A DNA stretch of 50,479 nucleotides from an uncultured bacterium (GCA_903874345.1 CAIQRY010000064.1:1-50479), one strand, 5' to 3'; positions 11,717 through 30,843 are shown, counted from the stretch's first letter. A program made the numbers and translations. Notes: generated by a model not told the origin, from the sequence alone.

Positions 11717-11935
11717 CTAAGGAGGCTTCTTTGGATCCCTCCAGAGTGTCTCCGATCTTGGCTCGCTTGCGCATGCAGAAAATTGGGTTTGTTGACCGGC
11801 GTGAGGCCGAGTTTTGGTTTCAGTCAGAGACTGAAACGCCAACTCTTTTGGTGGCCACTCGCCAATCATCTGCCTGAAAATTTCAGGAAAGGCTACAAAC
11901 AGGGATGAAATAATGCGAAAGAACGGCTTCCTCAT
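11717..11935 (-). CDS. Orphan small ORF (72 aa), alternatively a structured ncRNA
   Basis: ATG at 11935 preceded by a perfect AGGAGG (11946-11941) at 5-nt spacing. It has its own TTGACA-17-TAAAGT promoter and a terminator. The product MRKPFFRIISSLFVAFPEIFRQMIGEW... has an amphipathic N-terminus and a polar tail, with no recognisable family. Confidence 0.4.
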   Translation of the reverse strand: MRKPFFRIISSLFVAFPEIFRQMIGEWPPKELAFQSLTETKTRPHAGQQTQFSACASEPRSETLWRDPKKPP

Positions 11936-11966
11936 GGTATCCTCCTTCCCGGTTTGGAATAATTAG

Positions 11967-11995
11967 ACTTTAAAGGAATCTAAAAAAAATGTCAA
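11967..11995 (-). promoter_or_regulatory. Sigma70 promoter of the orphan small unit (TTGACA-17-TAAAGT)
   Basis: Minus-strand TTGACA at 11995-11990, 17-nt spacer, TAAAGT at 11972-11967. Confidence 0.6.
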
Positions 11996-12019
11996 GAAAA
12001 AAGAAAATGAAAAATTGGC

Positions 12020-13033
12020 TTATTTTACGCTTAAAGTATTAATCATCATCTTAAAAACCGTGGGGTAAGCGACGCGACTATCAACCGCCGGAATATAAGA
12101 AATAATATAGACGCTCTTATGTTTCTTATCGGTCAAATAAAAGTTAAACCCGTCGCTACTCATCACCCCGTCCCAAGTCGCGGTCGTCTTAATCTGATCA
12201 TAAGTGACTTTTTCCGTTGGGAAAGCTTCGCTATACCAGCCCAGGATACTTTGCTTACTAGTATTGTCTTGAATAGAAATTTGAATTAAAGAGTCATCCG
12301 GCGCATTAAACAGCATCGTATTATCATTATTCAAAGATTTGACCGTCCAGGCTTTAGGATAAAGAACACTATAACCTAAAACCTTGCTAGTAGCGGTCGC
12401 GAGCGACAAATTCGCTCCTAATTTCCCGGTACCGGTTGGATTATAACCATTTAAAATCTCCGTTAAATCGCCGTAACTATTATTATTAGTATCTGTTAAG
12501 GCGGGGTTGGTGCCGAAAGCAGCCTCTTCTTCATCGTTTAAACCGTCATTATCCGTATCTATTAAGGGGGCGGCCGGTGTGGTCGTACTTAATTCTTCGC
12601 CTATAGGCGAAGATGAGGTCGCTCCGGAACTTGTGGCGTTTAAATCAAGAACGGTTGAAGAAGTAGCTAAGATCTCCGTTGTCGTCGCGATTAGTGATGC
12701 GCTAGTCGTCGCTGATGAATTATCTGTTTTTGGAGAAACTATTGGCGCGCTGACTAGAGACGTATTTGCATTATTTTTAGTCGCCGGCTTGATAATGTAA
12801 AGATAAGAAAAATAAAATAACAAACCAATAAAAATAACGCCGCCCCCAATAATCAAAATACCGACGGCCTTAAAATTATTTTTGCCGCTAATTTTTGGCT
12901 GAGGCGCTGTAGCCGGACCCGATAAACGATTCGTTGCCGGCATATTATGAACAACTAGATCGTCATGAATTTTTTTATCCACGTCAAGATCAGTTGCCGC
13001 ACTCAAATTTTTCTTTTTATTTTTACCAAACAT
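12020..13033 (-). CDS. Single-pass membrane protein: Ser/Thr-rich stalk, thrombospondin-type-3-like Ca-binding repeat, C-terminal PsbP/Mog1-like beta domain
   Basis: 337 aa. TM AVGILIIGGGVIFIGLLFYFSYLYII, S/T-rich linker, DTDNDGLNDEEEAAFGTNP...GYNPTGTGKL. The C-terminal LGYSVLYPKAWTVK... pattern is typical of small sandwich domains. It is the last gene of the surface operon. Confidence 0.75.
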   Translation of the reverse strand: MFGKNKKKNLSAATDLDVDKKIHDDLVVHNMPATNRLSGPATAPQPKISGKNNFKAVGILIIGGGVIFIGLLFYFSYLYIIKPATKNNANTSLVSAPIVSPKTDNSSATTSASLIATTTEILATSSTVLDLNATSSGATSSSPIGEELSTTTPAAPLIDTDNDGLNDEEEAAFGTNPALTDTNNNSYGDLTEILNGYNPTGTGKLGANLSLATATSKVLGYSVLYPKAWTVKSLNNDNTMLFNAPDDSLIQISIQDNTSKQSILGWYSEAFPTEKVTYDQIKTTATWDGVMSSDGFNFYLTDKKHKSVYIISYIPAVDSRVAYPTVFKMMINTLSVK

Positions 13034-13036
13034 AAT

Positions 13037-13234
13037 TTATAAACTAAGCAGGGCAAAAACAGTCAAAGCCACCACGACTAAAAACGCTATGCCGGTGACG
13101 AGCCATTTCTGCCAATGCTGGCTCGCGGTCGGCGGCATAGTATGGAGATTTAAAGATAAACGCGGCAGCGTTTTGGGCGCTTTGGAAGCATCCGGACGCA
13201 ACCGCGCTTGGTTGTTGGAAGGAGTATTAATCAT
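13037..13234 (-). CDS. Small tail-anchored membrane protein (65 aa)
   Basis: ATG start, C-terminal TM WLVTGIAFLVVVALTVFALLSL. Gaps of 3 nt and 17 nt to its neighbours. It shares an H(T/N)MP motif with the N-terminal tail of the next gene product. Confidence 0.5.
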   Translation of the reverse strand: MINTPSNNQARLRPDASKAPKTLPRLSLNLHTMPPTASQHWQKWLVTGIAFLVVVALTVFALLSL

Positions 13235-13251
13235 TTTAAGAGTTATGCAGT

Positions 13252-13917
13252 TTATTTGAGCCCAGACAAACGACCCGCACCATTCGGATTATAACCGCCA
13301 CTAACCTCGGCACCATCTAAGTAGCCGTCTCCGTCTGTGTCCGGGTTATAGGGATCCGTATGATAAACATTTATCTCTTGATAATCTGTTAAACCATCAC
13401 TATCCGAATCCAAAGTCGAACTTGCATCCAGGACGGTTGAGGTCGCCGTGGTCGTTGCCGTAATTTCCGGAATAGTCGAAGTCGGAACGGTCGTTAATTC
13501 GGTCGAGGTCGATAGTGTACTGGTTGCGATTGAAGTATTAGTGGTTTCGGCGGTTGAGCTGGATGTGGTGGTCGTCGTAGTTGTTGAATTTTGGTTCTGT
13601 TTTTGAGTAAGCGCTGTGGTACTAGTGCTAGACACCGCCGGTGTTTGACTCGAGGAATTAGTATTTTTGAAAAACTGCGAATAAACCAAGTAACCGATTA
13701 ATAATATAATTATAGCCACGATGGCCACGATGGCAATTTTAAACCAAGGGAGACCACCTTTTTTTTCAGTCTCTTCGGGAACTGGTCCTTCGGCGGAAGC
13801 CAGGCCGACTTTTCGGGTCGTAATATCACCGGCGCCACTGGGCGAAACCTTATCAGTTTCCGCGAATATATCATCAACTGTTTGATTGTTGGCAGAATTG
13901 GCGGTGTCGTTAAACAT
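13252..13917 (-). CDS. Single-pass membrane protein with Thr-rich stalk and C-terminal thrombospondin-type-3-like repeats
   Basis: 221 aa. TM WFKIAIVAIVAIIILLIGYLVY, poly-Thr (TTTTTTTSSS), DSDSDGLTDYQEINVYHTDPYNPDTDGDGYLDGAEVSGGYNPNGAGRL at the C-terminus. Confidence 0.75.
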   Translation of the reverse strand: MFNDTANSANNQTVDDIFAETDKVSPSGAGDITTRKVGLASAEGPVPEETEKKGGLPWFKIAIVAIVAIIILLIGYLVYSQFFKNTNSSSQTPAVSSTSTTALTQKQNQNSTTTTTTTSSSTAETTNTSIATSTLSTSTELTTVPTSTIPEITATTTATSTVLDASSTLDSDSDGLTDYQEINVYHTDPYNPDTDGDGYLDGAEVSGGYNPNGAGRLSGLK

Positions 13918-13949
13918 AAATTTATAAACTATTAATATTAACTCCCCTA

Positions 13950-13978
13950 ATTATAGCGAATAAAAACCGGCCTGGCTA
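13950..13978 (-). promoter_or_regulatory. Possible internal promoter (TAGCCA-17-TATAAT) ahead of the 221-aa gene
   Basis: It lies in the only sizeable (87-nt) gap of the operon. The -10 is perfect and the -35 is weak. Confidence 0.3.
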
Positions 13979-14004
13979 TATTTTAAAAATTGCCGCGGCG
14001 TGCC

Positions 14005-14310
14005 TTATTTTTGGCGAGGACTAATCGGTCCCAATTTGTCCGGATTAGTTACAATATCGCTTGTACTTCTAATTATCTTATAAACCATTAATTCTCCGTT
14101 CGCCCCGCGTTCAACGGCTTGAACTTGCGCCACGTCGGGCAAGCCTAAAGCTTGTTTCTCGGCCGTATTTAAAAATTCTGGCTTATAAGTCGTGTTTGAC
14201 GTGGTCGCGGGATTAGAATTATTTTTCTTAATTACAAGCACTACTCCTAAAACAACCAGAATTAGAATAACCAGCGCCCCGCCCAGTATCATTATTTTCT
14301 TATTTTTCAT
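14005..14310 (-). CDS. Small N-terminally anchored protein (101 aa)
   Basis: ATG start and TM IMILGGALVILILVVLGVVLVI followed by a ~65-aa polar domain. It starts 10 nt downstream of the 1051-aa gene. Confidence 0.6.
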   Translation of the reverse strand: MKNKKIMILGGALVILILVVLGVVLVIKKNNSNPATTSNTTYKPEFLNTAEKQALGLPDVAQVQAVERGANGELMVYKIIRSTSDIVTNPDKLGPISPRQK

Positions 14311-14320
14311 ATTTTATAAT

Positions 14321-17300
14321 TTATTGTTGATTGCCTGTGCAAGTTGTCGGATCGGAGGTGCAGAACTTTCCATACTGACCATTACAACAAACCTGGCCCG
14401 GACAACAATAAGTCGAACCACACTTTGGCGTTAACTCACTATTATTATAGCAAGTTCTATTACTCATACCAGAACCACAACAAGTTTGAGTATCTTTATT
14501 ACAGCATGGGCCATAACCGCAAGTTAATTTATTTTGGGTGGGGTCGGCCTGGCAGGCGCCACTACAACAAGTTTCGCTACCTTGGGTGCAGCAAGTATTA
14601 AATGCCGTGCCACGCGGGTTTTGACAAACATCATAAGAACTGGAAACTGCTTGATTAACGCACTTACAAGATAGCTGGCTTAAACATACATTATTCTTAC
14701 AGGTATACCCCGTCGGGCAAGAACAGCCGGTGGTCGCGCCGCAAAGATCACACCCGGTGTTATTATTATGACAATTCGGTTGGCCCGTACAATGTCCGGC
14801 CGGGTTGCACATCTGGTTGGCGGCGCAGGTGCCACAGACACCACCGCAACCGTCTGGGCCGCATTCTTTCCCAATACAATTTTGAGTGCAAGCACCGCAC
14901 CCTGAATCTTGAGACTCACAACCATTAAGCGGTTTACCGTCGCAATCATACCAACCCAAGTCACAAACACAAATATTATTCTGAAGGCTTTGATGCGCGG
15001 CGCAAGTGGGCGGCGTTGAAGAAGCCACACAATCATCCGCACAATTTGTAGTCGTTTCCATCGTGGTCGTGCCCGTCGCGGTCGGAATAATTAATTGGCA
15101 ATAACCGTCGCCGCAATAACCGCCGCCCGCCGCCGGAGACTTAAAGACGCAATAACTACCATTCGGAATTAGGAGTGGCGTTGTTGAACCCACGCCTGTA
15201 GTGCAACCGTATTGTTTATCAATACTTGAAGCAGCGGGAGATGTCGCGACACTAGCCGCGCCATCGCAATCTTCGAAACCATCATTATAGAAACCACCAC
15301 GGCCTTCCATATTCGGAACTTGCTTAAGACCGTCTCCGCAATAATCATTAATACTTAAAATAAAAGCCCGTGTCGAGGAAGCGCCATATTCATTTGTCGC
15401 CTTAATGATAATATTGGTACCGGTCGAAGTCGCAGTCGGTGTACCCGACAGATATGTAACGGTTGGCTGATGCGTTGCTGGTGGTAATGTAGTATTAATA
15501 GCTGAACTAGTTTTGATAAAAAAATTAAAAATCGCACGCGCTAAATTACCAAACGATTGTTTAAGGCTAACGGCCCTGCCATTTCCCGAACCGCTACTTT
15601 GTCCGCTAGCCAAACTTAAACCAGCCGGCAAGGGGCTGCTTGTATAACTCAAAGAATGATTACCGAATTGGTCAGAACCAAGCAAACAAGAGTAGCTGCT
15701 GTTTAAACGCGCGGCATTAGAACAATTAAAATCGACCGGTGGGTTATCAACGATAACATGAATTGTAAATAATTTAGTTGCAAATACGCCATATTTATCC
15801 GTCACCGTTATCTTATAGGTGAAATCCGTATTCTGATAAAAACGGAAAGTCGTCGCAATCAAACCATTATAATCAATTCGATAACTAGCAATACCAGCCG
15901 AAGTCATGATTTTGGTTAAACCAGCGCCATTTAAAAGATCGAAGGGGCCGGCTATTTTTACCACCGTATAAGCGGCACCTGGATTATTAATGTTGGCGCC
16001 GGAAAAAACAAAATTATAATCAAAAGGCACTAAAGGATCCAAAACAAATTCCCCGTCGGCGGCGGAAATAACCGGTGCTGGGTTAATAATTTTAAGCGGT
16101 GTGGTCGTGGTAAAAACGCCACCTTGGCCGTCGCTCACTGTTAAAACTGCATTATACGTTCCCGGATTCCCTGCTAAACTGGCATAGATTTTTTTCTGAT
16201 TCGGGTCAGTTGTATCTTTTAAAACCGGCGGATTATTTTGACTATTGTTTTGCCAGCCGGTCCAGGTTGTACCGGAAGGATTAAAATTCCAAGTTAAAGG
16301 ATTATTCTGATCATCAATCATTCGAACAAAACCATTAAATTCCTGACCAGCCACGCCCGTCAGCGATGAGGCGACCAAACGCGGCGGGGTATTGGTCGCG
16401 TTCCCACCGGAATTAATACCAGTTGCCGTGACGCAAGCTGAGGCCGCCGGATCATTAGGAGAAAAATGATAACCCAGCATGGGACTCGAAGCATCGCGAC
16501 TTTCCATAACGGCGCACAAATTATAATTTGAACCGTTTTTATCCGTTTTATAAACCAGGGCGTAGCTCCCAGCGGGAAGCGGTAAATAAGCCGAATTCGA
16601 ATTATAAACAAATTTCTTGAGTTCGGCGCTCCAACAAGTTATCGGATTATACCCCGGGCAGGCGCCTAAGCGATTAATCGGATCGGTAGTGGGTTGTGAA
16701 ATACTGAGCGTACTAAGCAAAGATTCTAACCAACTAGGCCAGACCGAAACACTATGCCCGGTTAAATAACTACCGGCCGAAAGCAGCGGATAAGCACCTT
16801 GGGTTTGCTTGTATTGAAATAATGCCTCTTTTATCTCTTCTAATCGCCCGACCCGTTTTAAATCGCGAGCAATTTTGGCTTTAACACTATCACAGAAAAA
16901 ATTAGTCGGGCAATCTGTATCCGTCAAACAATTTTTAGTGGTTGTGAGCTGACAAGAGCTCGAAGCAAGGTTCGCCGTAGCACAGCCCTGGTTCGCACCA
17001 CAATCAGCATCGCTCGCGCAACTTAAAGAAGAAATTGAGCAGCTCGGTAAAGGATTTGTGCTTTCCGGGATGTTGCTGTTAAATTTCCAATGCGCTACAA
17101 TTTGGCCCAAAATATCCACTGTCTTCGATTCCGAACTCTGATTATAAGAAATCAAATAAATATTGGAATAAACCAATTTACTAATCGGATCAACATTGGC
17201 GGCATTAACGTAAACAGTTCGGCCGTCACGAATCGCCTCATAGCCATCGACAATTAAGGCCTGCGGAGAACCACTAAACCCCTGACTCTCATACCAACGC

Positions 17301-17476
17301 TGAATACTATAATGATTTGGATTAGGCACGACCCGTACGGCAATAGCATCGCTCGATAAAGCTGCTTGACCTGACCCGCTAGCCCCCGTTGATTGGGCCG
17401 CAGAATATTTAAAAGCCAATAAAAAAGCAATAACGACAAAAACAGCGCCAAAAATAAGCCAATTTTTTTTCTTCAT
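14321..17476 (-). CDS. Large secreted/anchored Cys-rich adhesin-like protein (1051 aa) with an embedded pseudopilin-like segment and Ig-like repeats
   Basis: Signal/anchor MKKKNWLIFGAVFVVIAFLLAF. Residues ~198-328 read ARDLKRVGRLEEIKEALFQYKQTQGAYP...YALVYKTDKNGSNYNLCAVMES, matching the type IV pilin/GspG globular-domain pattern. Ig-like repeats are present (YNAVLTVSDGQGGVF, YKITVTDKYGVFATKLFTIHV). The C-terminal ~340 aa hold about 50 Cys (YCGDG...EDCDG, CGPDGCGGVCGTC). Confidence 0.9.
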   Translation of the reverse strand: MKKKNWLIFGAVFVVIAFLLAFKYSAAQSTGASGSGQAALSSDAIAVRVVPNPNHYSIQRWYESQGFSGSPQALIVDGYEAIRDGRTVYVNAANVDPISKLVYSNIYLISYNQSSESKTVDILGQIVAHWKFNSNIPESTNPLPSCSISSLSCASDADCGANQGCATANLASSSCQLTTTKNCLTDTDCPTNFFCDSVKAKIARDLKRVGRLEEIKEALFQYKQTQGAYPLLSAGSYLTGHSVSVWPSWLESLLSTLSISQPTTDPINRLGACPGYNPITCWSAELKKFVYNSNSAYLPLPAGSYALVYKTDKNGSNYNLCAVMESRDASSPMLGYHFSPNDPAASACVTATGINSGGNATNTPPRLVASSLTGVAGQEFNGFVRMIDDQNNPLTWNFNPSGTTWTGWQNNSQNNPPVLKDTTDPNQKKIYASLAGNPGTYNAVLTVSDGQGGVFTTTTPLKIINPAPVISAADGEFVLDPLVPFDYNFVFSGANINNPGAAYTVVKIAGPFDLLNGAGLTKIMTSAGIASYRIDYNGLIATTFRFYQNTDFTYKITVTDKYGVFATKLFTIHVIVDNPPVDFNCSNAARLNSSYSCLLGSDQFGNHSLSYTSSPLPAGLSLASGQSSGSGNGRAVSLKQSFGNLARAIFNFFIKTSSAINTTLPPATHQPTVTYLSGTPTATSTGTNIIIKATNEYGASSTRAFILSINDYCGDGLKQVPNMEGRGGFYNDGFEDCDGAASVATSPAASSIDKQYGCTTGVGSTTPLLIPNGSYCVFKSPAAGGGYCGDGYCQLIIPTATGTTTMETTTNCADDCVASSTPPTCAAHQSLQNNICVCDLGWYDCDGKPLNGCESQDSGCGACTQNCIGKECGPDGCGGVCGTCAANQMCNPAGHCTGQPNCHNNNTGCDLCGATTGCSCPTGYTCKNNVCLSQLSCKCVNQAVSSSYDVCQNPRGTAFNTCCTQGSETCCSGACQADPTQNKLTCGYGPCCNKDTQTCCGSGMSNRTCYNNSELTPKCGSTYCCPGQVCCNGQYGKFCTSDPTTCTGNQQ

Positions 17477-17486
17477 ATATATAAAC

Positions 17487-20400
17487 TTAGTGGGCAGGAA
17501 TTGAAGTCATTACTTCGGAAGATTTTAGACTTTCGTTGTTATAAGCATCTAAAGCCGTCAGGGCAAAATAATTATTACCAGCTGGAAACTGACTAGTATC
17601 AAAGGTTAAAGTCGTGGCCGTTGCCACGGAATCAAAAGATTCTCCGTATTGATGAGCAACAATACCATGATATAGACGATATAAAACTGTGTCATCAGAA
17701 TTAGCATCCCAAGTAAACGTTATTTTACTATTATCAACCGGAACACCAGGATGAATAATTTTAGGCTGAATAATAAAACCTAATGGCACGACGGGAGGCG
17801 TCTGGTCAGTCGGAGTCGTCGTTTTTTCATTGGATAGTTGGCTCTCGGTCTGATTGACCGACACAACCGAAACCTTGAAAATATAGCTCTGGTTATTAGT
17901 TAAGCCACTAATAACCGTACTACAGGTATAAACATTACTAGTTAATGTGCAGCTCGCGAGCGTAACTGGTTTGACCATTAAAGTTCCCTGCCCGGATTTT
18001 AAATAATAAATTTTAAAAGAAGCTACTTGGCTGGCGCTTGAGTTCCAGTCAACTTTAACTTCGCCGCCAGTTTTTTCATCGGTAGCATTAATTATTTCCC
18101 CGGCGTTCGGAATAGTTTCCCGGAAAAAATACGATTCTTTAAGAACGTCCCAGACACAAAGACCGTCTGCTTGGCCATCACCATTTTTATCCGTGCCGCA
18201 GGCCGCGCCTAAATTACTGCAAGGCGCATGGTCGGCGCTACAAATTAAACTTGTGTTCTGGCCGCGCGTCACGGCTTGATTAACAATCGCGGGTAAATCA
18301 TCTAAAGTTCCAGTTTTACCTAAATCGCGACAATAATAAAATTTATAATTGTAATTGCTACAATTTCCGCTACCGGCCAAACAATTACTACCCGTATCAT
18401 TCCAGGGCGACCAGGTACCGTTAAGGGCAATTGGCGGCCAAGGATTATTGCAAACAAAAACGTAGAGATCGGCGGCTTTATTTACTTGATCGCCATTCGA
18501 ATAAACATTGCAACAATTATTATTGCAATTTGAACCGGTACAAGAGCAGCTCGGACTACTGTCACAACTCGCACCCAAGAAACGGGTCATGTCGACTTTA
18601 GCCGTAATCTGCGTTGAATTATCCGTTACCCCGGCTTGCGCCGTAGCAAAAGATTGATTGACTGGTAGACTGGGCACCGCGCTAAGCGCGGCCACACTGG
18701 GGTCGGCAATTTGCCATTTATAGTCCCAGAAATAACCGGTCACAGGTTGTAAAATCTGATTATCCGAGCTATAAGCCCAGGTCGTGAAGACTTTGTCGCG
18801 ATCAGAAACCGTATCAAAAGTTTTGTCATTCGGATTAATATCATTTTCATTTAAAGCATTGTCCGTCGTCTTAAAGAGATACGAAACCGGATTAACCGTC
18901 ACGTGATCAACGGCGCAAATGCCGGCCTTTGGCCCCTGGTCTGATAAAGTAGTAAATTTAAAAATCTGAGAATTTTTATAAGACTTGTTATTAAATTTAA
19001 TTAAGTCGCCGGCAACATAGGTACCGGAAGAGGGGTCAAAATAACCGGGGCCAGTAAAACCAATTTCTTGGAGACTTAACACGCCGGATTGGCTATTTAA
19101 ATTTTCATCCCCTTTCACGACTAAATAATAATTACTCGAAGCGGCTAATAGGCGCTGGGGCATAAAAACAAGCGCCGTGCTACTCCCTTCATTTTCCGAG
19201 CTGACCGTTCCTGGTACGGCACAATATAAATGTTCGGCCGGAGGCGTATTGTTCGAGGCGAGTACGCTGCCGCTCAAACGACCAACTAAATTTTTAACTG
19301 TTAAAGATACTTGCCAATACCAACGTGTTAAAAAATTGGCATTTTTATAAGCTAATAAATCTTGCAAAGAATTACCTTTAGCTATAAAGGTACCGGCGGG
19401 GCAAACACCATTGGCATAGCTTCTTTCTTCTAGTAATAAAATGTTACTAAAAGATGTAATATCCATATTCTGATTAAAGTTAACCTTAACGACGGCATTA
19501 CGACAAACATTAGTTGCTAAATGAGGTGGCGTTGTGGAAGCAATTTCCGGACGAGCCTGACAGCAAGTATCTGTGCCGCAACCCACGGTACTTGGTGAGC
19601 CGCATTCGTTGTCGCTACTGCAACCGCAACATAAACCGCGGCTCGCACCAGAGCAGTTACCTTTATCAGCTAAACATTTTAAATTTGGATTAAGAGCCGT
19701 ACAAGCGTCATTCGCCTGTCCCGGCTTACAGCAACAAGTACCGCAATCCGGCTGCGATGTGCCCAAAGAACCAGAGGCAAGTAAACAGGCAAAACCCGGA
19801 AAATTACAAATTTCACTTTGACAGGTCGACGTGGCTACGCCTGCGCAAGACATGCCTGGCCCTTGCGGTGTATTTGCACAATAGTAAGAACAAGTATCAA
19901 TCGTAGGGTAAAGACCTAGTTTCGCCGGCGTCGAAGTCGCACATTTTGTCGGGTCACCCGGAGGTGTCGAAGACGCCGTCTGACAATTATAATAAGCGCA
20001 GTAGCCGGCATCAGCACTACCCGTTATTTTATCGCCTAAGCGACAAGCACCGCCGCCCGTCGCTTTGGCATCGAAGCAACAACGCGTACTTTTCGCCAAA
20101 CAAGAAGTCATGTCCGTAATTCCGGCACAAGGATCCGCGTTTTGACAATCAGTAATACAGGTTTGTTGATTTGGATAAGTTCCAATTTTAACCGGCGTGG
20201 TCGTGGCGCATTTAGTCGGTTCAGTCGCAGAACAATCATAATAAGCGCAATAACCAAAATCGATACTGCTCGGATTATTCGATATTAATTGACCACTCCC
20301 ACCGCGACAAACATCGTCCGCAGTTGATGGCGTTTTATTAGCGTCTAAACAACAAGCGCTAGAGTGATCTGTACAATTTTGAGCTGACAAGCCGGTGCAA

Positions 20401-23333
20401 TCCGAACAAACGCCATCCGGGAATTGAGCATTATTAATATCGCAATACTGTCCGCTATGTCCGGTACAATTACAAGCGGCGTCTCGTGCTTCCGGTGTCG
20501 CCCCGGCTGATTTACAACCACCGCAACGACCTAAAGTCGCACCGCTCGTCTTGCCTGTGTCTGCGCCGCAAGTACCTTCGCACTGCAAACCAGCACAGCA
20601 ATCACGCGCGCTCTGGCCAATCTGACAACAACAATCGCAACTCGGCTGTTTAAGTGTAAAACATTTATCATGACCGCTCGTCGCGTCCGCTTCACAGGTC
20701 GAACCGGCCGCACAAATAGAACCAGACGTACAACGCCCCGCGGAACCAATTTTATTGCAAGTCAGCGGCGAACTACAGATTTCGCAAGAACCGGACACAC
20801 AACGATTACCCGTGGATTTAGTCCAGCCATCCGGACAACGTCCGGCCACTGTTATCTCCCATTGTTTATCTGAATTACAAGTTTCGGTTGTCGTTGCTGT
20901 TATGGTTTTACCACCCGCCACGTATTGATAAGTAAACTCTTGTGCTAAATCACAATTCGCGCCCGTCCCGTTTTTCAAACAACGTCCGGAAACAGAATCA
21001 TAACTACAATTATTCGGAGCGAAATCACCACAACCCGAAACCGAGGCGCAAGTTGAATCACAATCGCCGGCCGCCACTTTAGTTCCGCCGGAATAAGGCG
21101 AACAAGTGCCTGGTACATTGGGGCAAGTCGCGCCGTTTTGGCAAGAACCATAATAACCAGCCGCGCCCGCGCAACTGTAAAGACTCGGACCGAAACCAGT
21201 TGAAAAACTCCATTCAAAAACCGAAGTCGGGATATTAATAAAACATTCCGCCAAGGTATTGGCGCAACGTCCTTTTTTATAAGTACTCGCCGGACAACAA
21301 ATCTGCGTCCCGCAATCCGCATCAACATGACATTCGCCCATTAGGAAATTCAATTCATTACCCCAGGTACTATTATTTACGACATGAACCGGGCCAGTAA
21401 TCGCTCCATCCGGAACCGTGGTCTGAATCATATTAGCGCGACCATCAACCGCAATCGTCCCGGTCGCGGATTTATCATAATTAAATTTCACCAAACCCTC
21501 ATCGCCAACGCGACCAAAATATTCACCCCATAAAGTCACGGGTGTCGCGGCCGGACCACGACTCGGATCAATTCTACATAAACTAGTTTTCAAAGCTAAA
21601 TTCTTATCGGCCTGAAAAGTATTTGGATTAAGTCCCTGGGTATCTATAGTTGTCGCGCCCAAACTGACTTTAATCGTATAATTACCATCTGCTAAACCGG
21701 CCGGTACTTTAACAATAATTTGATCATCCCGCCAAACCGCATTCAAACAAACATCCGGAAAATCATAAGAGGCTTCGGTGTTACCGAAGTAAACATGATT
21801 ATTGCCACGCGCGCCACCAAAACCATAACCGCGAATCGTCACGTATTGCCCGGCCGAACCGGCCGTCGGCGTAAAAGAAATAATGTATGGTCCCTCGCCC
21901 TGCTCTGGCTCTTTAACAAAGCTTAAAAAATTACTCGGAACGCGATTACCATTAATATTATTAATAACAAAACTGCCCGAGTCACCAGCCCGGATATTCG
22001 GCGTGGTCGAAGTTCCGGCTAAACCGGCTGGACTATTAAACTGCGAATCTAAACCGCGGACGTTCGCCTGATAATTACCAAAATAAGCATTACCAGAGTA
22101 AAGATTAATGCCTTCGTAGCCAACCGCCGAGCTTAATTGTCCTTTGTCCGGACTTAAATAACATAGACCAGGACGCGCGATGACGTTTGCTTCAAAATCT
22201 GGAATCTGCGGACCATAAGTATTATCAGTCGTGTCATTAAAATTATCTTTATTAACAACTTTGATTGGTCCGTTAGTCACGCCGCCCGGTACAGCAATTA
22301 CAATTTGCGTATCGGTCCAAGAATTAATACAAGCCGGATTTAAAGTTTGGGGTGCTACGCCTAATTGCGGGCTGTTTGCCCCTTCAAAAATTAATTGACT
22401 ACCGGTGGCCGAATAAGTACCAAAATTCTTACCGGAAATAGTAATAAAATTATCCGGAGCACCGTTCGGGCTGGCCGTATTACAAGTCGTGGCGCAATCG
22501 CTATCTTGCGTACAAACCTTATTGCGATCTTCCTGACAAAAACCGCCGACCGGACTAATCGCCGTAATGACTGGCGTCCCGGTACAAAGGCAGGAGCTCG
22601 GATCACAAGTTAAATAAGCCCCGCAACGATTATTGTCCGGCTGGCAAGTCGCATTAGTCGTGTCTAGATTGCAAGCCTGGCCTGAACCAGATTGCGGTAC
22701 GCACAAACAAGAAGTTGGATCGCAGTAATTACCAGTGGCGCAAATTTGATTTAAAGGCGAACAAATCGGTGAAGCCGGGTTAGCGTTACAAACCGTGGGC
22801 CCGCCGCCGCCTGAACAATTTGAACCGATACAACCACCCCAGGAGTTACCATAACAAGTCATGTACCCGCCGCAACCACAAGAGGCTGTACTGCCATCCG
22901 TGCAACCGCTACCGCTACCGCTACCACCAATCGCCCCGCCTAAAGCCGAAATAATAAAAGTGGCAATAGCCCAAGAAGCTAAAATAATTCCTAAGCCGAT
23001 TACGGCACTCTTCAAAAGTTTCTTGGCTTCTTCAACTTTTTCTTCATCGCCGTTTGAGGTCATCCATTTAAACCCGCCGTAAACAATAATTAATAAAGCA
23101 ATGGTTCCTAAAAAGCCGAGGGCTAGATTAATAATACGAGCGATAATCGTCCGTAAATCAGTGCCGCCACCTGGTAGTGAGTTATTCAAACCATTAGCCG
23201 CGGCGTTAATTCCATAATCCTGTGCCAAAGCGAAATGTGCCATTAACAGGCCTCCCAATAAGAAGCCTAGAAAAACCAAGATTTTTTTACGGTTGATTTT
23301 AAACACAAAGTATATAAATTTTTGACTCAACAA
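17487..23333 (-). CDS. Giant surface protein (1948 aa): VirB2/TrbC-like pilin hairpin + Cys-rich modules + IPT/TIG-like repeats + SbsA/Ig-like domain + two C-terminal FN3-like domains
   Basis: Uninterrupted ORF. The track start is TTG at 23333, 3 nt after the upstream stop; GTG at 23306 (MFKINRKKILVF...) is an equally good start. IPT-like PYIISFTPTAGSAGQYVTIRGYGFG and RIDPSRGPAATPVTLWGEYFG. About 120 Cys by hand count. FN3-like VKVDWNSSASQVASFKIYY...YIFKVSVVS and ITFTWDANSDDTVLYRLYHG...YNNES. Confidence 0.9.
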   Translation of the reverse strand: MLSQKFIYFVFKINRKKILVFLGFLLGGLLMAHFALAQDYGINAAANGLNNSLPGGGTDLRTIIARIINLALGFLGTIALLIIVYGGFKWMTSNGDEEKVEEAKKLLKSAVIGLGIILASWAIATFIISALGGAIGGSGSGSGCTDGSTASCGCGGYMTCYGNSWGGCIGSNCSGGGGPTVCNANPASPICSPLNQICATGNYCDPTSCLCVPQSGSGQACNLDTTNATCQPDNNRCGAYLTCDPSSCLCTGTPVITAISPVGGFCQEDRNKVCTQDSDCATTCNTASPNGAPDNFITISGKNFGTYSATGSQLIFEGANSPQLGVAPQTLNPACINSWTDTQIVIAVPGGVTNGPIKVVNKDNFNDTTDNTYGPQIPDFEANVIARPGLCYLSPDKGQLSSAVGYEGINLYSGNAYFGNYQANVRGLDSQFNSPAGLAGTSTTPNIRAGDSGSFVINNINGNRVPSNFLSFVKEPEQGEGPYIISFTPTAGSAGQYVTIRGYGFGGARGNNHVYFGNTEASYDFPDVCLNAVWRDDQIIVKVPAGLADGNYTIKVSLGATTIDTQGLNPNTFQADKNLALKTSLCRIDPSRGPAATPVTLWGEYFGRVGDEGLVKFNYDKSATGTIAVDGRANMIQTTVPDGAITGPVHVVNNSTWGNELNFLMGECHVDADCGTQICCPASTYKKGRCANTLAECFINIPTSVFEWSFSTGFGPSLYSCAGAAGYYGSCQNGATCPNVPGTCSPYSGGTKVAAGDCDSTCASVSGCGDFAPNNCSYDSVSGRCLKNGTGANCDLAQEFTYQYVAGGKTITATTTETCNSDKQWEITVAGRCPDGWTKSTGNRCVSGSCEICSSPLTCNKIGSAGRCTSGSICAAGSTCEADATSGHDKCFTLKQPSCDCCCQIGQSARDCCAGLQCEGTCGADTGKTSGATLGRCGGCKSAGATPEARDAACNCTGHSGQYCDINNAQFPDGVCSDCTGLSAQNCTDHSSACCLDANKTPSTADDVCRGGSGQLISNNPSSIDFGYCAYYDCSATEPTKCATTTPVKIGTYPNQQTCITDCQNADPCAGITDMTSCLAKSTRCCFDAKATGGGACRLGDKITGSADAGYCAYYNCQTASSTPPGDPTKCATSTPAKLGLYPTIDTCSYYCANTPQGPGMSCAGVATSTCQSEICNFPGFACLLASGSLGTSQPDCGTCCCKPGQANDACTALNPNLKCLADKGNCSGASRGLCCGCSSDNECGSPSTVGCGTDTCCQARPEIASTTPPHLATNVCRNAVVKVNFNQNMDITSFSNILLLEERSYANGVCPAGTFIAKGNSLQDLLAYKNANFLTRWYWQVSLTVKNLVGRLSGSVLASNNTPPAEHLYCAVPGTVSSENEGSSTALVFMPQRLLAASSNYYLVVKGDENLNSQSGVLSLQEIGFTGPGYFDPSSGTYVAGDLIKFNNKSYKNSQIFKFTTLSDQGPKAGICAVDHVTVNPVSYLFKTTDNALNENDINPNDKTFDTVSDRDKVFTTWAYSSDNQILQPVTGYFWDYKWQIADPSVAALSAVPSLPVNQSFATAQAGVTDNSTQITAKVDMTRFLGASCDSSPSCSCTGSNCNNNCCNVYSNGDQVNKAADLYVFVCNNPWPPIALNGTWSPWNDTGSNCLAGSGNCSNYNYKFYYCRDLGKTGTLDDLPAIVNQAVTRGQNTSLICSADHAPCSNLGAACGTDKNGDGQADGLCVWDVLKESYFFRETIPNAGEIINATDEKTGGEVKVDWNSSASQVASFKIYYLKSGQGTLMVKPVTLASCTLTSNVYTCSTVISGLTNNQSYIFKVSVVSVNQTESQLSNEKTTTPTDQTPPVVPLGFIIQPKIIHPGVPVDNSKITFTWDANSDDTVLYRLYHGIVAHQYGESFDSVATATTLTFDTSQFPAGNNYFALTALDAYNNESLKSSEVMTSIPAH
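19875..20354 (-). repeat. Intragenic tandem duplication of a ~70-aa Cys-rich module in the 1948-aa gene
   Basis: aa 994-1065 CCLDANK...GYCAYYDCSATEPTKCATTTPVKIGTYPNQQTCITDCQN (20139-20354) versus aa 1085-1153 CCFDAKA...GYCAYYNCQTASSTPPGDPTKCATSTPAKLGLYPTIDTCSYYCAN (19875-20081). Confidence 0.65.
22929..23285 (-). other. VirB2/TrbC-like (T4SS-pilin-like) two-helix hairpin module, N-terminus of the 1948-aa protein
   Basis: Signal peptide ...HFALA|QDYGINA, helix IIARIINLALGFLGTIALLIIVYGGF, charged loop KWMTSNGDEEKVEEAKKLLKS, helix AVIGLGIILASWAIATFIISAL, then a GSGSGSG linker. Confidence 0.55.
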
Positions 23334-23336
23334 ATT

Positions 23337-26042
23337 TTATTGGCAATTACCGTCCACGCCTAAAGTGCTAGTCAGGGCGCCAAAACAGCAAGACGGTTGA
23401 CTCGCGGTCGCCGCGCAATTCGGACCAGCCGACGGTTTATAACAATTCTGATAAATATCTTTAACGCCAGATCCAACTTGTGCCTTATAACTGACCGAAG
23501 CAGAAAAAGCGGAGTGATTAATTTTGGAAACCGTCATATCGGGCACGCCATCTAAAGGAGCCGTATCTAAATTATCATTTAAGACCCAATAACCTAGGGG
23601 TTCGGTCGATAAACTACGTAAATTTATTAATTTATGTTCAATCGTGCTAGTCCCGCTTTGAATCAAGACGCTACCCGTGCGGAGCGTGCTATTCATCATT
23701 AAAGTATTAAAAGTAATTGCTACCGGGTCGGCTAAATTCAAACCGCTTTGACTCTGGGCTGGGTTAGTCGTCGTAATAAGCGGCGTACCGGACATAATCT
23801 GGTCATTAACATAGAAGGACCATAGGAATTTATCTTCTCGGCCGGCATTGAGTTCGGGATGATAGTTAACATTATAGTTATCACTATAGAAAGAGATTGG
23901 TCCGGCTGCGGCCGTATCGCGATTACCATCTAAAGAATTCATGGCCGCGTCGACGATGCCATCTAAGCTACTGATATTAGCCGTCGGATAATTTTGGCCA
24001 CTATCGTTCTGACAAGTTTGATAACCGAGCGGCGTCGAGGAACAATTCTTATAAGGGGCGAGCGGCAAACATTCGCTACTGTTCGTACAAGTTTTTAAAT
24101 TGGCGGCGACGAGCTTAACCGCTAAATGACTATTAGCTGGCAAACAATAAATTTTTTCGCCGCAGCCGTTAACCCCGCATTCGTTATCTGATAAAAATTC
24201 CACCGTTCTATAACCGTTTGAAACTATGAATTTACCGCCGACATAATCGCCAACGCAAGTATTGTTACTGCATTTATAAGACTGGCAATCACTATTCTTA
24301 ACGCAAGCGGCGGCGGCCGGGCTCGAAGAGGCATCAGCATTCACAATGCGCAAATAAGGCGCTAATTCCGCGGCCGTTCCGGAAATAGTCATGGGATTAA
24401 CCGCTTCATTGAAATTAATCTGAATGACCGAGTTCATGGGGTTATCTCTCTTATCATTAACATTAGTCGTAATTATTTGATCGACGCCGCCGGAAAAAGC
24501 GCGGAGTCCCAAGGCGGCCGCATTAGTCGTTTGCAAAACAAGGTTATTACCATCCGCACCCGCAACCTTCGCTGTTAAATTCACGCGATTACCGGTTCGG
24601 GCCACATCAATATCGCTATTACCACTTAATTTTCCTTCTAAATTAAGCGCCACCGCATTCTTATCACAGGCGCCATTAGGCACTAAAACATTATTATTTA
24701 AATTATTAACGGCAAAAGTATAAAGCTCGGCGCCGACTAAAACCGTATCCGCTAATTGCTCAGGAATAATATCAACCGTCCATAAACTACCCGCTGGATG
24801 ACTCGGCGCGGTCAAACTTAAGTAATTAGGAAAAGTAACCAGACCATTACCATCAAAATTAGACACGCCTAATAAATTATTAGTTGCCCCGTCAAATAAT
24901 TGGGCCTTATCAGTCTCGCCGGCCGGAACCGCAATCTTAAACTGGGCAAGATTACCATGATAATTCAAAGCCACATTCGCGGTCGCCGGGCTAATCGTCT
25001 TAACCGTGGCCGCGGCATAAGTCGTCGGACAGTCGTTTACCGTAATCGCGCCGGTCGCGGCAATTGCGGGGATGGTTTGTTTGGCCGCATCCTTGAGATT
25101 GTCCGGAATTGGAAAAACGCCGCTCGGAGCGACAATAGGCGACGTTAAATCTAATTGGCTAGAAACCGTGAATTTCCATTCCGTATAATTAACGCTGCAA
25201 TTTTGAAAAATAGAATTACCTTCTTCATTTTTAATATTGTTGGTAAAACGAATGGTATAGGGTGTATTAGAAGTTGGTGAGCCCAAATAAGACATCGGGG
25301 TTAAAACTAAGGTCTTGTTACCGCTCGGGACAGAAACCAAAATATCCGTCACGTTCGTATTCGGGTTAGAGCAAGCGCTGCCGTTACAGGAATTACCTAA
25401 ATCAGTTTTGTATAAATTAATCGCGCGTGGATTAAGCTTCGTGCAATCAGTTTTATTACAAGCGCAACTAGCCCCACTATTATTAACACAAACCGAATCT
25501 AACTTTACCGCTTCTTTAAACGTCAACATGACCGAAGTATTGCGCGGCACTTCATTTTGACCGTCGGTCGGATAGTAACTATCAACCGCACAAGCACCAA
25601 TCGCGCCTAAGCCAACGCTTCCTAACCCACCATTGCCAGCGCCGACCTGATTACCGTTACCATTGCCGCCTAAAACCGCCGTGAGTTGTGTTAAGACAAA
25701 AGTCACAATAGCCCAAGAAGCTAAAATAATGACCAAACCAATAATCGCATCGCGCAAAGTTTTTTTCGCTGCCTCGATTTTGTCTTCTTCGCCGCCTGAA
25801 GTCATCCACTTAAACCCGGCATACATAATAATTACGAGAGCGAGCGCGCCTAAGAAACTCAAAGCGATTTGAATAATACGACCAATAATCAATCTCGGAT
25901 CTGATTGAGAAAGGTTAATGGTGTTATTCACGGCATTAATTCCATAATCCTGCGCCAAAGCAAAATTAGCCACCAACCATCCGGCCGCGCTCGTTAAAAT
26001 CGCTAGAATTAATTTCCCTGTTTTTCTCATGCCAGGAAACAA
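23337..26042 (-). CDS. Large surface protein (901 aa): VirB2/TrbC-like pilin hairpin + SbsA/Ig-like and beta-rich ectodomain; first gene of the surface operon
   Basis: The track start is TTG at 26042. ATG at 26030 (MRKTGKLILAILTSAAGWLVANFALA|QDYGINA) is the more likely start. SbsA_Ig-like segments VDSYYPTDGQNEVPRNTSVMLTFKEAV and NPMNSVIQINFNEAVNPMTI. About 26 Cys. Confidence 0.9.
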   Translation of the reverse strand: MFPGMRKTGKLILAILTSAAGWLVANFALAQDYGINAVNNTINLSQSDPRLIIGRIIQIALSFLGALALVIIMYAGFKWMTSGGEEDKIEAAKKTLRDAIIGLVIILASWAIVTFVLTQLTAVLGGNGNGNQVGAGNGGLGSVGLGAIGACAVDSYYPTDGQNEVPRNTSVMLTFKEAVKLDSVCVNNSGASCACNKTDCTKLNPRAINLYKTDLGNSCNGSACSNPNTNVTDILVSVPSGNKTLVLTPMSYLGSPTSNTPYTIRFTNNIKNEEGNSIFQNCSVNYTEWKFTVSSQLDLTSPIVAPSGVFPIPDNLKDAAKQTIPAIAATGAITVNDCPTTYAAATVKTISPATANVALNYHGNLAQFKIAVPAGETDKAQLFDGATNNLLGVSNFDGNGLVTFPNYLSLTAPSHPAGSLWTVDIIPEQLADTVLVGAELYTFAVNNLNNNVLVPNGACDKNAVALNLEGKLSGNSDIDVARTGNRVNLTAKVAGADGNNLVLQTTNAAALGLRAFSGGVDQIITTNVNDKRDNPMNSVIQINFNEAVNPMTISGTAAELAPYLRIVNADASSSPAAAACVKNSDCQSYKCSNNTCVGDYVGGKFIVSNGYRTVEFLSDNECGVNGCGEKIYCLPANSHLAVKLVAANLKTCTNSSECLPLAPYKNCSSTPLGYQTCQNDSGQNYPTANISSLDGIVDAAMNSLDGNRDTAAAGPISFYSDNYNVNYHPELNAGREDKFLWSFYVNDQIMSGTPLITTTNPAQSQSGLNLADPVAITFNTLMMNSTLRTGSVLIQSGTSTIEHKLINLRSLSTEPLGYWVLNDNLDTAPLDGVPDMTVSKINHSAFSASVSYKAQVGSGVKDIYQNCYKPSAGPNCAATASQPSCCFGALTSTLGVDGNCQ
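25668..26015 (-). other. VirB2/TrbC-like pilin hairpin module, N-terminus of the 901-aa protein (paralogue of 22929-23285)
   Basis: LIIGRIIQIALSFLGALALVIIMYAGFKWMTSGGEEDKIEAAKKTLRDAIIGLVIILASWAIVTFVL. By eye about two-thirds identical to the 1948-aa module. The shared DNA word atagcccaagaagctaaaataat occurs in both. Confidence 0.55.
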
Positions 26043-26067
26043 AAAATCTTTTAAATTATTCCTACTG

Positions 26068-26076
26068 TGATATAAT
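26068..26076 (+). promoter_or_regulatory. Extended -10 promoter TGATATAAT for rel (divergent)
   Basis: Plus-strand TGATATAAT about 92 nt upstream of the rel ATG at 26168. Confidence 0.4.
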
Positions 26077-26089
26077 TTAGGATGTCTTT

Positions 26090-26098
26090 ATTATAACA
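26090..26098 (-). promoter_or_regulatory. Extended -10 promoter TGTTATAAT for the surface-protein operon
   Basis: The minus strand reads TATGTTATAATAAAG, 48-60 nt upstream of the first start codon. Confidence 0.45.
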
Positions 26099-26100
26099 TA

Positions 26101-26139
26101 AAAAACAAAAAATAAAAAAGCCCGCTGCGGTAGCGAGGC
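26101..26139 (-). terminator. Terminator-like hairpin on the minus strand (also a 5'-UTR hairpin of rel on the plus strand)
   Basis: GCCCGCT (26120-26126) / AGCGAGGC (26132-26139): 7 bp plus one bulge. On the minus strand it is followed by TTTTTTATTTTTTGTTTTT. Confidence 0.35.
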
Positions 26140-26167
26140 TAGCCCACTTGACCATTAAGCAAAAGAT

Positions 26168-27634
26168 ATGACGATTGAACGAATTATCAAAAAATTCGCG
26201 GAAAATCATCCTGGTGCCGACACCAAATTGTTGGCCCAAGCCTTTGAATTTGCCAATCTCGCGCATGAGGGTCAAATTCGAAAAAATGGCGAGCCTTATA
26301 TTCAACATCCCTTACATACCGCCTATATCTTAACCGAGATTAAAGCCGACCTTCCGACCGTAATGGCCGGTCTGCTCCATGACGTACCCGAAGATACGAA
26401 ACATACCATTTCCGAAATCAAAAAAAGGTTCGGTTCCGAGGTCGCTTTTTTGGTCCAAGGCGTAACCAAACTCGGAAAAATCAAGTACCGCGGCATTGAG
26501 CGCTATCGTGAAAACCTGAAAAAAATGTTCCTGGCCATGGCCAGTGATTTGCGCGTTATTTTTATTAAATTCTGCGACCGCTTGAATAATTTACGAACGC
26601 TGGAAAACCTGCCGCCGGAAAAACAAAAAAGAATCGCCAAGGAAACTTTGGAGATTTATGCGCCGATTGCCGGTATGCTCGGCATTAGCCGTTTAAAATG
26701 GCAGATGGAAGATATTTGTTTCAAATTCCTTTACCCCGAAGAGTTCCATGACCTCGAATATAAATATGAGGTTGAAAAAAAAGTCGAACGCAATCGTTTT
26801 TTTCAAAAAATCAAAAGCATTTTGACACCGAAACTTGATGAAGCCAAAATTAAATATGATATTGAAGTTCGCTTCAAACATTTATATAGCATCTATTTAA
26901 AAATGCAGGACAAGGGCCGACCTTTTAATGAAATTTATGATGTTTTTGCCTTGCGCGTCATTGTTGAGAATATTGATGACTGTTATCAGGTCTTAGGCTT
27001 AATCCATTCCCTTTGGAAACCGAAGCCGAATCGTTTTAAAGACTATATTGCCGTTCCGAAACCAAATGGTTATCGATCACTCCATACCACAGTCTTTGGT
27101 CCGGAGGGTAAAGCCGTGGAATTTCAAATTCGCACCCGCGAAATGCATGAAGAAAGCATTTACGGTTTAGCCGCCCATTGGCATTATAAATCCAAGCGGG
27201 GTCAAGGCATTTACCAGACGCCGGCCTGGGTTAAAGAAATCGTCGATATTCAAAAAGAAATCACCTCAACTTCCGAATTCGTTAAAAAAATAAAACTCGA
27301 TATTTTCCGCGATCGCATCTTTGTCTTTTCCCCTCGTGGTGACGCTTTCGAGCTGCCGGAAAAAGCGACGCCCATTGATTTCGCCTATGCTGTTCATACT
27401 AATATTGGTAATCAGGCGGCCGGTGTAATTATTAATGAAAAAGTTGGTCGTTTAGACCAAGAATTAAAAAACGGCGATTTAGTCGAAATAATTATTGAAA
27501 AAGGCCGTCGCTTCCCGGATCGTGATTGGTTAAAATTTGTAAAAACCAAACGCGCGCGCGATTTGATTAAGGAATACGCGAAGCGATCCCGACTCGAAAG
27601 TTTCAAACGCTTTATCCCGGGGATAAATAAATAA
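26168..27634 (+). CDS. rel: Short bifunctional RelA/SpoT-homologue (HD hydrolase + synthetase + TGS; no C-terminal regulatory half)
   Basis: 488 aa. HD: HPLHTAYIL, LLHDVPEDT. Synthetase: DVFALRVIV, NGYRSLHTTV, EFQIRTREMHEESIYGLAAHWHYK. TGS: IFVFSPRGDAFELPEKATPIDFAYAVHTNIG. The protein ends about 50 aa after TGS. Confidence 0.9.
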   Translation: MTIERIIKKFAENHPGADTKLLAQAFEFANLAHEGQIRKNGEPYIQHPLHTAYILTEIKADLPTVMAGLLHDVPEDTKHTISEIKKRFGSEVAFLVQGVTKLGKIKYRGIERYRENLKKMFLAMASDLRVIFIKFCDRLNNLRTLENLPPEKQKRIAKETLEIYAPIAGMLGISRLKWQMEDICFKFLYPEEFHDLEYKYEVEKKVERNRFFQKIKSILTPKLDEAKIKYDIEVRFKHLYSIYLKMQDKGRPFNEIYDVFALRVIVENIDDCYQVLGLIHSLWKPKPNRFKDYIAVPKPNGYRSLHTTVFGPEGKAVEFQIRTREMHEESIYGLAAHWHYKSKRGQGIYQTPAWVKEIVDIQKEITSTSEFVKKIKLDIFRDRIFVFSPRGDAFELPEKATPIDFAYAVHTNIGNQAAGVIINEKVGRLDQELKNGDLVEIIIEKGRRFPDRDWLKFVKTKRARDLIKEYAKRSRLESFKRFIPGINK

Positions 27635-30273: not shown

Positions 30274-30843
30274 TTAATTATTATATTGCGGCCAATAACT
30301 GGGCGTATATAGAGTAATTTTATTAAACGGCCAACCACGAAAGAGGACTTTGCCGGTGATAAAGCTTTTGTTGACTGGGCCGAAGTAACGCGAGTCCTTG
30401 GAAGCGTTACGATTATCCCCTAAAACATAATACTCATTCGCGCCAATATTTATTTTATCCGTATTGTCACTAATGGTAGTTAGCCCCGAGGTCAAATAAG
30501 GCTCATTTAAAACAAAGCCATCGGGATGAGCGGTATTAAAAATCTTAACACTCCCGTTTTCAATCTGAACCTGTTCACCGGGGAGGCCAATAACGCGTTT
30601 AATAAAGTATTCCTGCGGATCACGCGGGTAGCGAAAAACAATCACCTGGCCTCTTTGCGGGGCGTGGAAGCGATAGCTGATTTCATCAATAATTAAGTAT
30701 TGGCCGTCATGAAAATTATTTTCCATGGACGCGCCTTTGACGTAAAAGGGTTGGATTAAATAGTAGCGAACCGGCAGGATAATGATTAAAGAGATAACAA
30801 TAACTTTGACGATCTCCCAGACGAACAAGAAGAACTTACGCAT
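30274..30843 (-). CDS. lepB: Signal peptidase I
   Basis: 189 aa. N-terminal TM, catalytic Ser box GASMENNF, Lys box IKRVIGLPGE, and VLGDNRNASKDSRYFGPV. Confidence 0.92.
   Translation of the reverse strand: MRKFFLFVWEIVKVIVISLIIILPVRYYLIQPFYVKGASMENNFHDGQYLIIDEISYRFHAPQRGQVIVFRYPRDPQEYFIKRVIGLPGEQVQIENGSVKIFNTAHPDGFVLNEPYLTSGLTTISDNTDKINIGANEYYVLGDNRNASKDSRYFGPVNKSFITGKVLFRGWPFNKITLYTPSYWPQYNN

Follow-up and report, generated by a model that had tools for sequence, protein, structure and literature searches.

A T4SS_pilin-type hairpin is the N-terminal module of two adjacent giant, predicted extracellular proteins in Falkowbacteria

The locus and its two giant genes

The window analysed here is a stretch of 50,479 nucleotides (GCA_903874345.1, CAIQRY010000064.1:1-50479) from an uncultured bacterium that belongs to the Falkowbacteria (Patescibacteria) and is an ultra-small groundwater-type bacterium. 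Two open reading frames (ORFs) lie adjacent and in tandem on its minus strand, ORF A (17487-23333) and ORF B (23337-26042), and encode giant proteins with a common N-terminal module of the kind found in the VirB2/TrbC pilins of type IV secretion systems (T4SS). A preliminary description of the window had given lengths of 1948 and 901 amino acids (aa); the two giant ORFs stand, but the likely starts shorten their products to ~1939 and 897 aa. Gene A probably starts at the GTG at 23306 (MFKINRKK...), a position chosen because it agrees with the MFKK... N-termini of orthologues, and gene B probably starts at the ATG at 26030 (all features are listed in Table 1). The public gene call for A (P0241, 1918 aa) begins at Met31 of the ORF and loses the signal peptide (window 23223-23333).

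Comparison of A with B using BLASTP gave a single significant segment (69 of 128 residues identical, 54%, E=7e-35; residues 10-135 of A and 1-124 of B), any further segment being noise (E>=2.1), and the likeness therefore ends directly after the second hydrophobic helix. It begins within the signal peptide and reaches ~95 residues beyond the ALA/QD motif, so that the earlier observation of a similarity extending far past the cleavage site is borne out. The 23-nt word ATAGCCCAAGAAGCTAAAATAAT, which had been reported as identical in both genes, occurs exactly twice in the window and 0 times in shuffled sequence.

A hydropathy scan found exactly three hydrophobic segments in each protein, namely the signal peptide and two helices; the AxA motifs of the signal peptides were read by eye. 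Cysteines are absent from the hairpins: all 26 of B are in the ectodomain, and of the 124 of A one is at the linker/ectodomain junction and 123 are beyond it. In the AlphaFold2 model of the mature A module, two long helices span residues 23-55 and 60-99 (mean predicted local distance difference test score, pLDDT, of 74). The model of B has helices at 45-76 and 82-120, followed by a disordered linker and then by all-beta domains, with pLDDT >90 at residues 320-520. Cleavage of the signal peptide would leave two helices, so that the hairpin is predicted to have both its ends outside and its loop in the cytoplasm, with the ectodomain outside the cell. The extracellular location of the large regions, also proposed in the preliminary description, is supported as a predicted topology by these hydropathy segments and by the Cys-rich Ig-like domains.

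Pfam searches identified Big_5 domains in B, and TIG together with weaker Big_5 and fn3 matches in A; no enzymatic domain was present among these matches, nor was any SLH or other wall-anchoring domain found by Pfam in either protein. Both proteins thus have the layout of a pilin module, a linker and bulky non-pilin modules (Big_5, TIG, fn3, Cys-rich). The best matches of the B ectodomain in the PDB, using Foldseek, were the surface-layer (S-layer) proteins SbsC (E=3e-6), Sap and EA1 along with the MSCRAMM adhesins SdrE and SdrG, all with low template modelling scores (TM-scores).

Table 1. Features of the B-A pair and of the genes that follow it, in window coordinates
Feature	Coordinates	Strand	Description
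Gene B	23337..26030	-	897 aa: signal peptide, T4SS_pilin hairpin, linker, Ig-like ectodomain; T4SS_pilin and two Big_5 matches
B signal peptide (MRKTGKLILAILTSAAGWLVANFALA, followed by QD)	25953..26030	-	hydrophobic segment at residues 7-26, AxA motif
B mature pilin module	25680..25952	-	short N-terminal extension, helix 1, loop GFKWMTSGGEEDK, helix 2; PF18895 match at 25695-25889
B Gly/Asn-rich flexible linker	25617..25679	-	pLDDT <50 at model residues 118-138; column identity the lowest of the protein
B ectodomain	23340..25616	-	string of beta-sandwich domains (Ig-like, Big_5), Cys-rich C-terminus; Big_5 52 bits
Gene A	17487..23306	-	~1939 aa: signal peptide, T4SS_pilin hairpin, linker, Cys-rich/TIG/Big_5/fn3 ectodomain; T4SS_pilin match, TIG 50.5 bits
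A signal peptide (MFKINRKKILVFLGFLLGGLLMAHFALA, followed by QD)	23223..23306	-	hydrophobic segment, AxA motif; N-termini of orthologues concur
A mature pilin module	22941..23222	-	PF18895 match at 22953-23159; lies under the interval 22929-23285 of the preliminary description
A Gly/Ser linker (GGAIGGSGSGSG)	22905..22940	-	column identity 0.376; stand-alone pilins stop at the same point
A ectodomain	17490..22904	-	~1800 aa; IPT/TIG, Big_5-like and fn3-like domains
23-nt word, A copy	22966..22988	+	codes for IILASWAI of helix 2
23-nt word, B copy	25708..25730	+	common to A
Gene C	14321..17476	-	1051 aa, 64 Cys, He_PIG domain; secreted or anchored, without pilin module; 10 bp downstream of A; conserved neighbour
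Genes D (101 aa), E (221 aa), F (337 aa)	12020..14310	-	small single-pass membrane proteins

Pilin homology of the hairpin

Both hairpins match nearly the whole of the 71-position Pfam model PF18895 (T4SS_pilin), with 47.2 bits in A (residues 59-127) and 44.2 bits in B (residues 52-116) for a gathering score of 26.6. The layout of this family (Sec signal peptide, two hydrophobic helices, short charged loop) is present in A and B according to hydropathy and AlphaFold2, while its typical size of 120-140 aa as a stand-alone protein is not matched by A (~1939 aa) or B (897 aa). For the NCBIfam model NF045849 (Mbov_0395 family pilin-like conjugal transfer protein, cut-off 40 bits), A is above the cut-off (46.2 bits) and B below it (30.9 bits). 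For Pfam PF04956 (TrbC/VirB2, gathering score 27.9), B reaches 18.4 bits (E=0.0026) and A has no match; some orthologues of A and B carry precomputed PF04956 matches, and the protein P0361, which consists of tandem hairpins (see below), reaches 51.2 bits. Homology of the A and B hairpins to PF04956 pilins is plausible, membership of that model being reached by neither. The match to pilin models that the preliminary description anticipated consequently holds for PF18895 in both proteins and for NF045849 in A, and fails for PF04956 in both and for NF045849 in B.

A search with the module retrieved stand-alone pilins of ~130 aa from Falkowbacteria and other Patescibacteria (52-68% identity). When placed in a multiple alignment with the free pilins, the modules of A and B correspond to them position by position, starting at the mature N-terminus and continuing through helix 2 (49-68% identity). 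In the loop between the helices, the residues G, F, K, W, M, T and G are invariant across all of these sequences. The free pilins end 8-12 residues past helix 2, precisely where the Gly-rich linkers of A and B start. With the PF18895 scores and this full-length alignment, the initial proposal that two giant extracellular proteins carry a VirB2/TrbC-like hairpin as their N-terminal module is upheld.

An identity as type IV pilins was considered and rejected: the proteins lack a class III signal peptide or N-methylation motif and have no Pfam match of that kind, and they have instead a Sec-type AxA motif and a two-helix hairpin.

Free pilins in the same genomes and origin of the modules

The free pilins that come closest are encoded by the first gene of tandem arrays of six. 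Fifteen assemblies that hold the B-A pair, including the complete chromosome CP066698.1, also hold a separate array of about six free pilins. In one metagenome-assembled genome, pilin 1 of the array is 55% identical to the A module and 50% to the B module, pilins 2-6 are 25-44% identical to the modules, and the array members are 26-52% identical among themselves. In a neighbour-joining tree, the modules of A and B group together, with the types of array pilin 1 as their sister group, although the supporting branch is short and weak; a single A/B clade beside the pilin 1 type fits one fusion followed by a duplication. On these sequence comparisons, the hairpin of A and B belongs to the lineage of the first pilin gene of the array.

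Tandem arrays of VirB2-like pilins have been described in Patescibacteria (Wang et al. 2023, PMC10633639; Quinonero-Coronel et al. 2025, PMC12102498), and genetic tests, made in a single species, found both the T4SS and its array of VirB2-like pilins to be essential there (PMC10633639). Of the 5 assemblies that were matched to loci with a B orthologue, 4 are listed with VirB4 in Table S1 of PMC12102498.

In two genomes, a seventh and more divergent T4SS_pilin gene (151-188 aa; L002:5746-6201 and L004:7206-7772) was observed ~4 kb upstream of the six-pilin array. It adjoins a gene for a solute-binding protein and an HTH/Glucodextran_B-like gene, and this arrangement is kept in both.

Conservation and distribution of the B-A pair

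Full-length searches retrieved at least 120 clusters for each protein, of the same architecture and 46-99% identical (49-99% for B orthologues). The orthologue clusters of A (at least 120) are mostly of 1600-2300 aa, and nearly all have PF18895. Names given by NCBI to relatives of A and B include "pilin" (for some members of ~900 aa), "Ig-like domain-containing" and "IPT/TIG domain-containing protein". A relative of B was found in 216 species genomes (one genome being taken per species), mostly from Falkowbacteria or other Patescibacteria and including the closed chromosome CP066698.1. Gene order was scanned by means of ORF prediction and hidden Markov models in 80 fetched loci: in ~73 of them, a B gene with N-terminal hairpin is directly followed by an ORF of 1500-2400 aa that also has an N-terminal hairpin. 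On a 911-kb contig (L001), the order is the same as in the window (M16 peptidase, AddA-like helicase, RuvB, QueA, LepB, HisRS, RelA/SpoT, B, A), and A is followed there by a 1036-aa gene, a 109-aa gene and a TSP3_bac gene.

This distribution bears on the suspicion that a short pilin gene was joined to a giant downstream gene by an error of sequencing, assembly or gene calling. The unusual length and the mis-called start of one database entry (P0241) could arouse it, but a continuous ORF with N-terminal hairpin occurs in >120 clusters per family, in ~73 of 80 species genomes and on one closed chromosome. An artefact was rejected on the grounds that the architecture is conserved across species genomes, and its probability is considered negligible.

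Many records of the relatives are titled "uncultured Gammaproteobacteria bacterium" (L005, L007, L009 and others), and single records bear the titles "Bacillota bacterium" and "Candidatus Saccharimonadales", despite typical Patescibacteria genes; these titles look taxonomically unreliable.

The mean pairwise column identity is highest in the hairpin for each protein (0.675 in B, 0.646 in A). It falls to 0.56 and 0.51 in the ectodomains of B and A, to 0.42 and 0.35 in their signal peptides and to 0.29 and 0.38 in their linkers. Just 0.6% of the windows along the A ectodomain are as conserved as the hairpin.

Other architectures built on the hairpin

An index-free profile search returned 53,488 clusters for the module family at E<=0.001. 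A word-index search with the module alone listed short pilins only and missed A and B themselves, which reflects a bias of the index and not biology. Among the best 150 representatives of the profile search, 84 are short single pilins, 15 combine one hairpin with an extension at the C-terminus and ~50 are polypilins. The C-terminal extension is long in 13 of the 15, nearly all of which are relatives of A or B, truncated ones included; a protein of 2758 aa (P0485) combines the hairpin with Fib_succ_major, BNR and Big_5 domains.

The polypilins have from 2 to 8 or more tandem hairpins behind a single signal peptide, with up to 17 matched stretches counted (P0361, 820 aa; P0362, 552 aa; P0363; P0366; P0383, 1147 aa; P0486, 1775 aa). 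Tandem pilin genes are part of the published survey, whereas fused hairpins are absent from its description. Cargo also occurs on the N-terminal side: in proteins of 440-600 aa, the mirror image of A and B, a Cys-rich domain of 350-520 aa stands between the signal peptide and a C-terminal hairpin. Three such genes (L136:3189-4979(+), L200:1835-3349(+) and L096:917-2230(+)) all score above the gathering score of PF18895 and lie near pilin arrays. One further protein (L141:3785-5170(-)), which also passes PF18895, has a hairpin followed by a Cys-rich C-terminal domain of ~350 aa with a weak Dickkopf_N-like match. Since cargo is found before or after the hairpin, both outward-facing ends carry loads, which fits a role as display platform.

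Comparison with known systems

The stand-alone pilins of Patescibacteria have in common with A and B the signal peptide, the two helices, the WMT..G(N/D)EE loop and homology over the full length of the pilin. They have 120-140 aa, whereas A and B extend by ~1800 and ~780 extracellular residues, and their genes form a conserved pair away from the array. The two studies on free pilins (PMC10633639, PMC12102498) do not mention such fusions; the second, a T4SS survey of 3,035 genomes, mentions the "small size" of VirB2 and detected no adhesin for Patescibacteria.

Modular type IV pilins (PilB and PilC of Streptococcus sanguinis, CofB, TcpB, ComZ, GspK) follow the same logic of a carrier module, a linker and bulky effector modules. 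Their effectors are predicted at the filament tip with a role in adhesion, and many examples come from the candidate phyla radiation (CPR) (Raynaud et al. 2021, PMC8179133). They belong, however, to an unrelated superfamily with its own machinery, have a class III signal peptide cut by the prepilin peptidase and a single N-terminal helix, and resemble A and B in design only.

The TrbC/VirB2/TraA pilins of diderms (PF04956) have in common with A and B the signal peptide and a two-helix hairpin with its ends outside, but the genes of A and B are outside any virB-type operon. TrbC and VirB2 undergo head-to-tail cyclisation. The C-terminal ectodomain of A and B therefore makes such a cyclisation impossible for them.

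The role proposed below is like that of the separate adhesins of other T4SS, namely VirB5/TraC at the pilus tip in diderms and the PrgB surface adhesins of Gram-positive conjugation. These have no sequence or domain relation to A and B, in which the adhesin-like part is covalently joined to the pilin module. A PrgB-like adhesin was not detected in Patescibacteria, and VirB5 was reported only in one atypical Gram-negative-type (MPF-T) system (PMC12102498). The S-layer proteins SbsC, Sap and EA1 are strings of beta-sandwich domains like the B ectodomain (TM-scores 0.05-0.12); A and B differ from them in having no SLH or wall-anchoring domain, so that the pilin hairpin would be the anchor.

Several elements are already known: the VirB2-like pilins of Patescibacteria and their arrays (PMC10633639, PMC12102498, PMC12857230), the modular type IV pilins (PMC8179133) and the domain combination itself, which is present in databases. 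The literature searched contains no description of T4SS_pilin/VirB2-type pilins fused to large ectodomains. The preliminary description had regarded the architecture as undescribed; this is correct to the extent that no paper on it was found in that literature, but the architecture is widespread (>200 species genomes) and its domain combination had already been recorded.

Proposed role and alternative explanations

The preferred reading, to which a probability of about one half is given, is that A and B are modular VirB2-type (T4SS_pilin) pilins, in which a carrier module presents adhesin-like ectodomains as pilus subunits. Both proteins have a Sec signal peptide, and its cleavage is predicted to leave the two-helix hairpin in the membrane with its ends facing outwards and its conserved loop (GFKWMTSxGxEEK) facing the cytoplasm. 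A flexible Gly-rich linker then bears the large disulphide-rich Ig-like ectodomain, predicted to be at the cell surface. The T4SS-related machinery for the free pilins probably handles A and B too, because the hairpin is kept under pilin-like constraint: a merely hydrophobic segment would drift like the signal peptide, which the hairpin does not, and from this we infer that it interacts with pilins and/or machinery. A and B would join the free pilins in one filament or conduit, as minor subunits and most likely at a tip or priming position, because a load of 800-1800 residues cannot sterically sit on every subunit; there, the ectodomains may present an adhesin-like surface for host-cell contact. 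In F-type pili, both termini of the pilin are on the outside of the filament and the loop is towards the lumen. The geometry thus leaves room for a load at the C-terminus.

Several observations weigh against this proposal. An ectodomain of ~1800 aa cannot pack along the shaft at every position. VirB4, VirB6 and VirD4-like genes are absent from the 50-kb window, as had been noted in the preliminary description, and so are stand-alone pilins; no T4SS machinery genes were found within 10 kb of the pair (L001) or of the free-pilin arrays either, so that the pair is not genetically linked to the machinery. Genes C-F encode further surface proteins with ordinary single-pass anchors, which suits a general "surface coat" operon. 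Foldseek comparison of the A module with the PDB gave nothing at E<=0.001 and only generic helical hairpins (E>=0.44), a shape too simple for this search to decide on membership of the pilins; no PDB sequence was matched in a profile search with the module, and single-sequence PDB searches with A and B gave nothing useful. According to a 2025 review (PMC12857230), a pilus made of the VirB2-like pilins of Patescibacteria has not yet been observed and is a possibility only.

A serious competitor, and quite a possible one, is that the hairpin was co-opted as a mere two-pass tether for envelope, coat or S-layer-like proteins of a monoderm cell, with no role in a pilus or T4SS. The setting suits it: the pair is in a housekeeping region beside the surface-protein genes C-F with their ordinary anchors, T4SS genes are not nearby, and the pair is core, single-copy and syntenic in the clade, as expected of a structural envelope component. 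The S-layer proteins SbsC, then Sap and EA1, are the best structural matches of the B ectodomain, but the TM-scores of 0.10-0.12 for SbsC indicate little beyond strings of Ig-like domains, and no SLH or other wall-binding domain was found. An anchor needs hydrophobicity alone, yet the hairpin and its cytoplasmic loop motif are the most conserved parts, far above the signal peptide, and the hairpin is still 49-68% identical to free pilins. Improbable by comparison is a processed precursor, whose ectodomain would be cut at the linker and then released or held non-covalently, leaving the hairpin as an ordinary pilin or making the ectodomain a secreted factor. The linker is flexible and exposed, and the free pilins stop exactly at the junction; its column identity of 0.29-0.38 without conserved motif, however, points to the absence of a conserved cleavage site, and no dedicated protease gene adjoins the pair, LepB (30274-30843) being the housekeeping signal peptidase.

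A more specific form of the modular-pilin reading is rather doubtful and is offered tentatively: A and B might represent the first case of modular pilins to be recognised in the VirB2/T4SS superfamily, with hairpins that nucleate or cap the filament and ectodomains that are the host-recognition adhesins of a system without VirB5 and PrgB.

A large part of bacterial diversity falls within the Patescibacteria, whose cultivated members live on host cells, to which they are attached. The pair may be the means by which these bacteria present adhesins to hosts, and as giant adhesin-like proteins covalently fused to a pilin module, A and B are concrete candidates for the host-contact component that is missing from their T4SS. 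Predictions of this proposal concern the location of A and B in filaments, a dependence on VirB4 and a host range that follows the variation of the ectodomains. The principle of a carrier pilin plus effector module would be extended from type IV pili to the unrelated superfamily of conjugative pilins and, if the modular-pilin reading is true, the VirB2 hairpin, if the polypilins and the pilins with an N-terminal load are taken into account, would be a general display platform of Patescibacteria. If the hairpin is an anchor only, the pair would still be a major conserved envelope component of a class-level lineage, which is less surprising.

Genomic neighbourhood

Genes C-F are co-oriented with A, and the gap between C and D is 10 bp. 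The products of E and F have Ser/Thr-rich stalks and TSP3_bac repeats. Promoter and terminator scans of the region 11600-26400 gave counts not above the expectation from shuffled sequence and do not inform on the limits of operons.

Elsewhere in the window, two genes on the minus strand (1823-3883 and 39174-40472) encode O-antigen-ligase-like (Wzy_C) membrane proteins, one of them with TPR repeats, and the gene at 48427-49536 (-) strongly matches the family of deoxyhypusine synthases (PF01916, 276 bits), here in a small bacterial genome.

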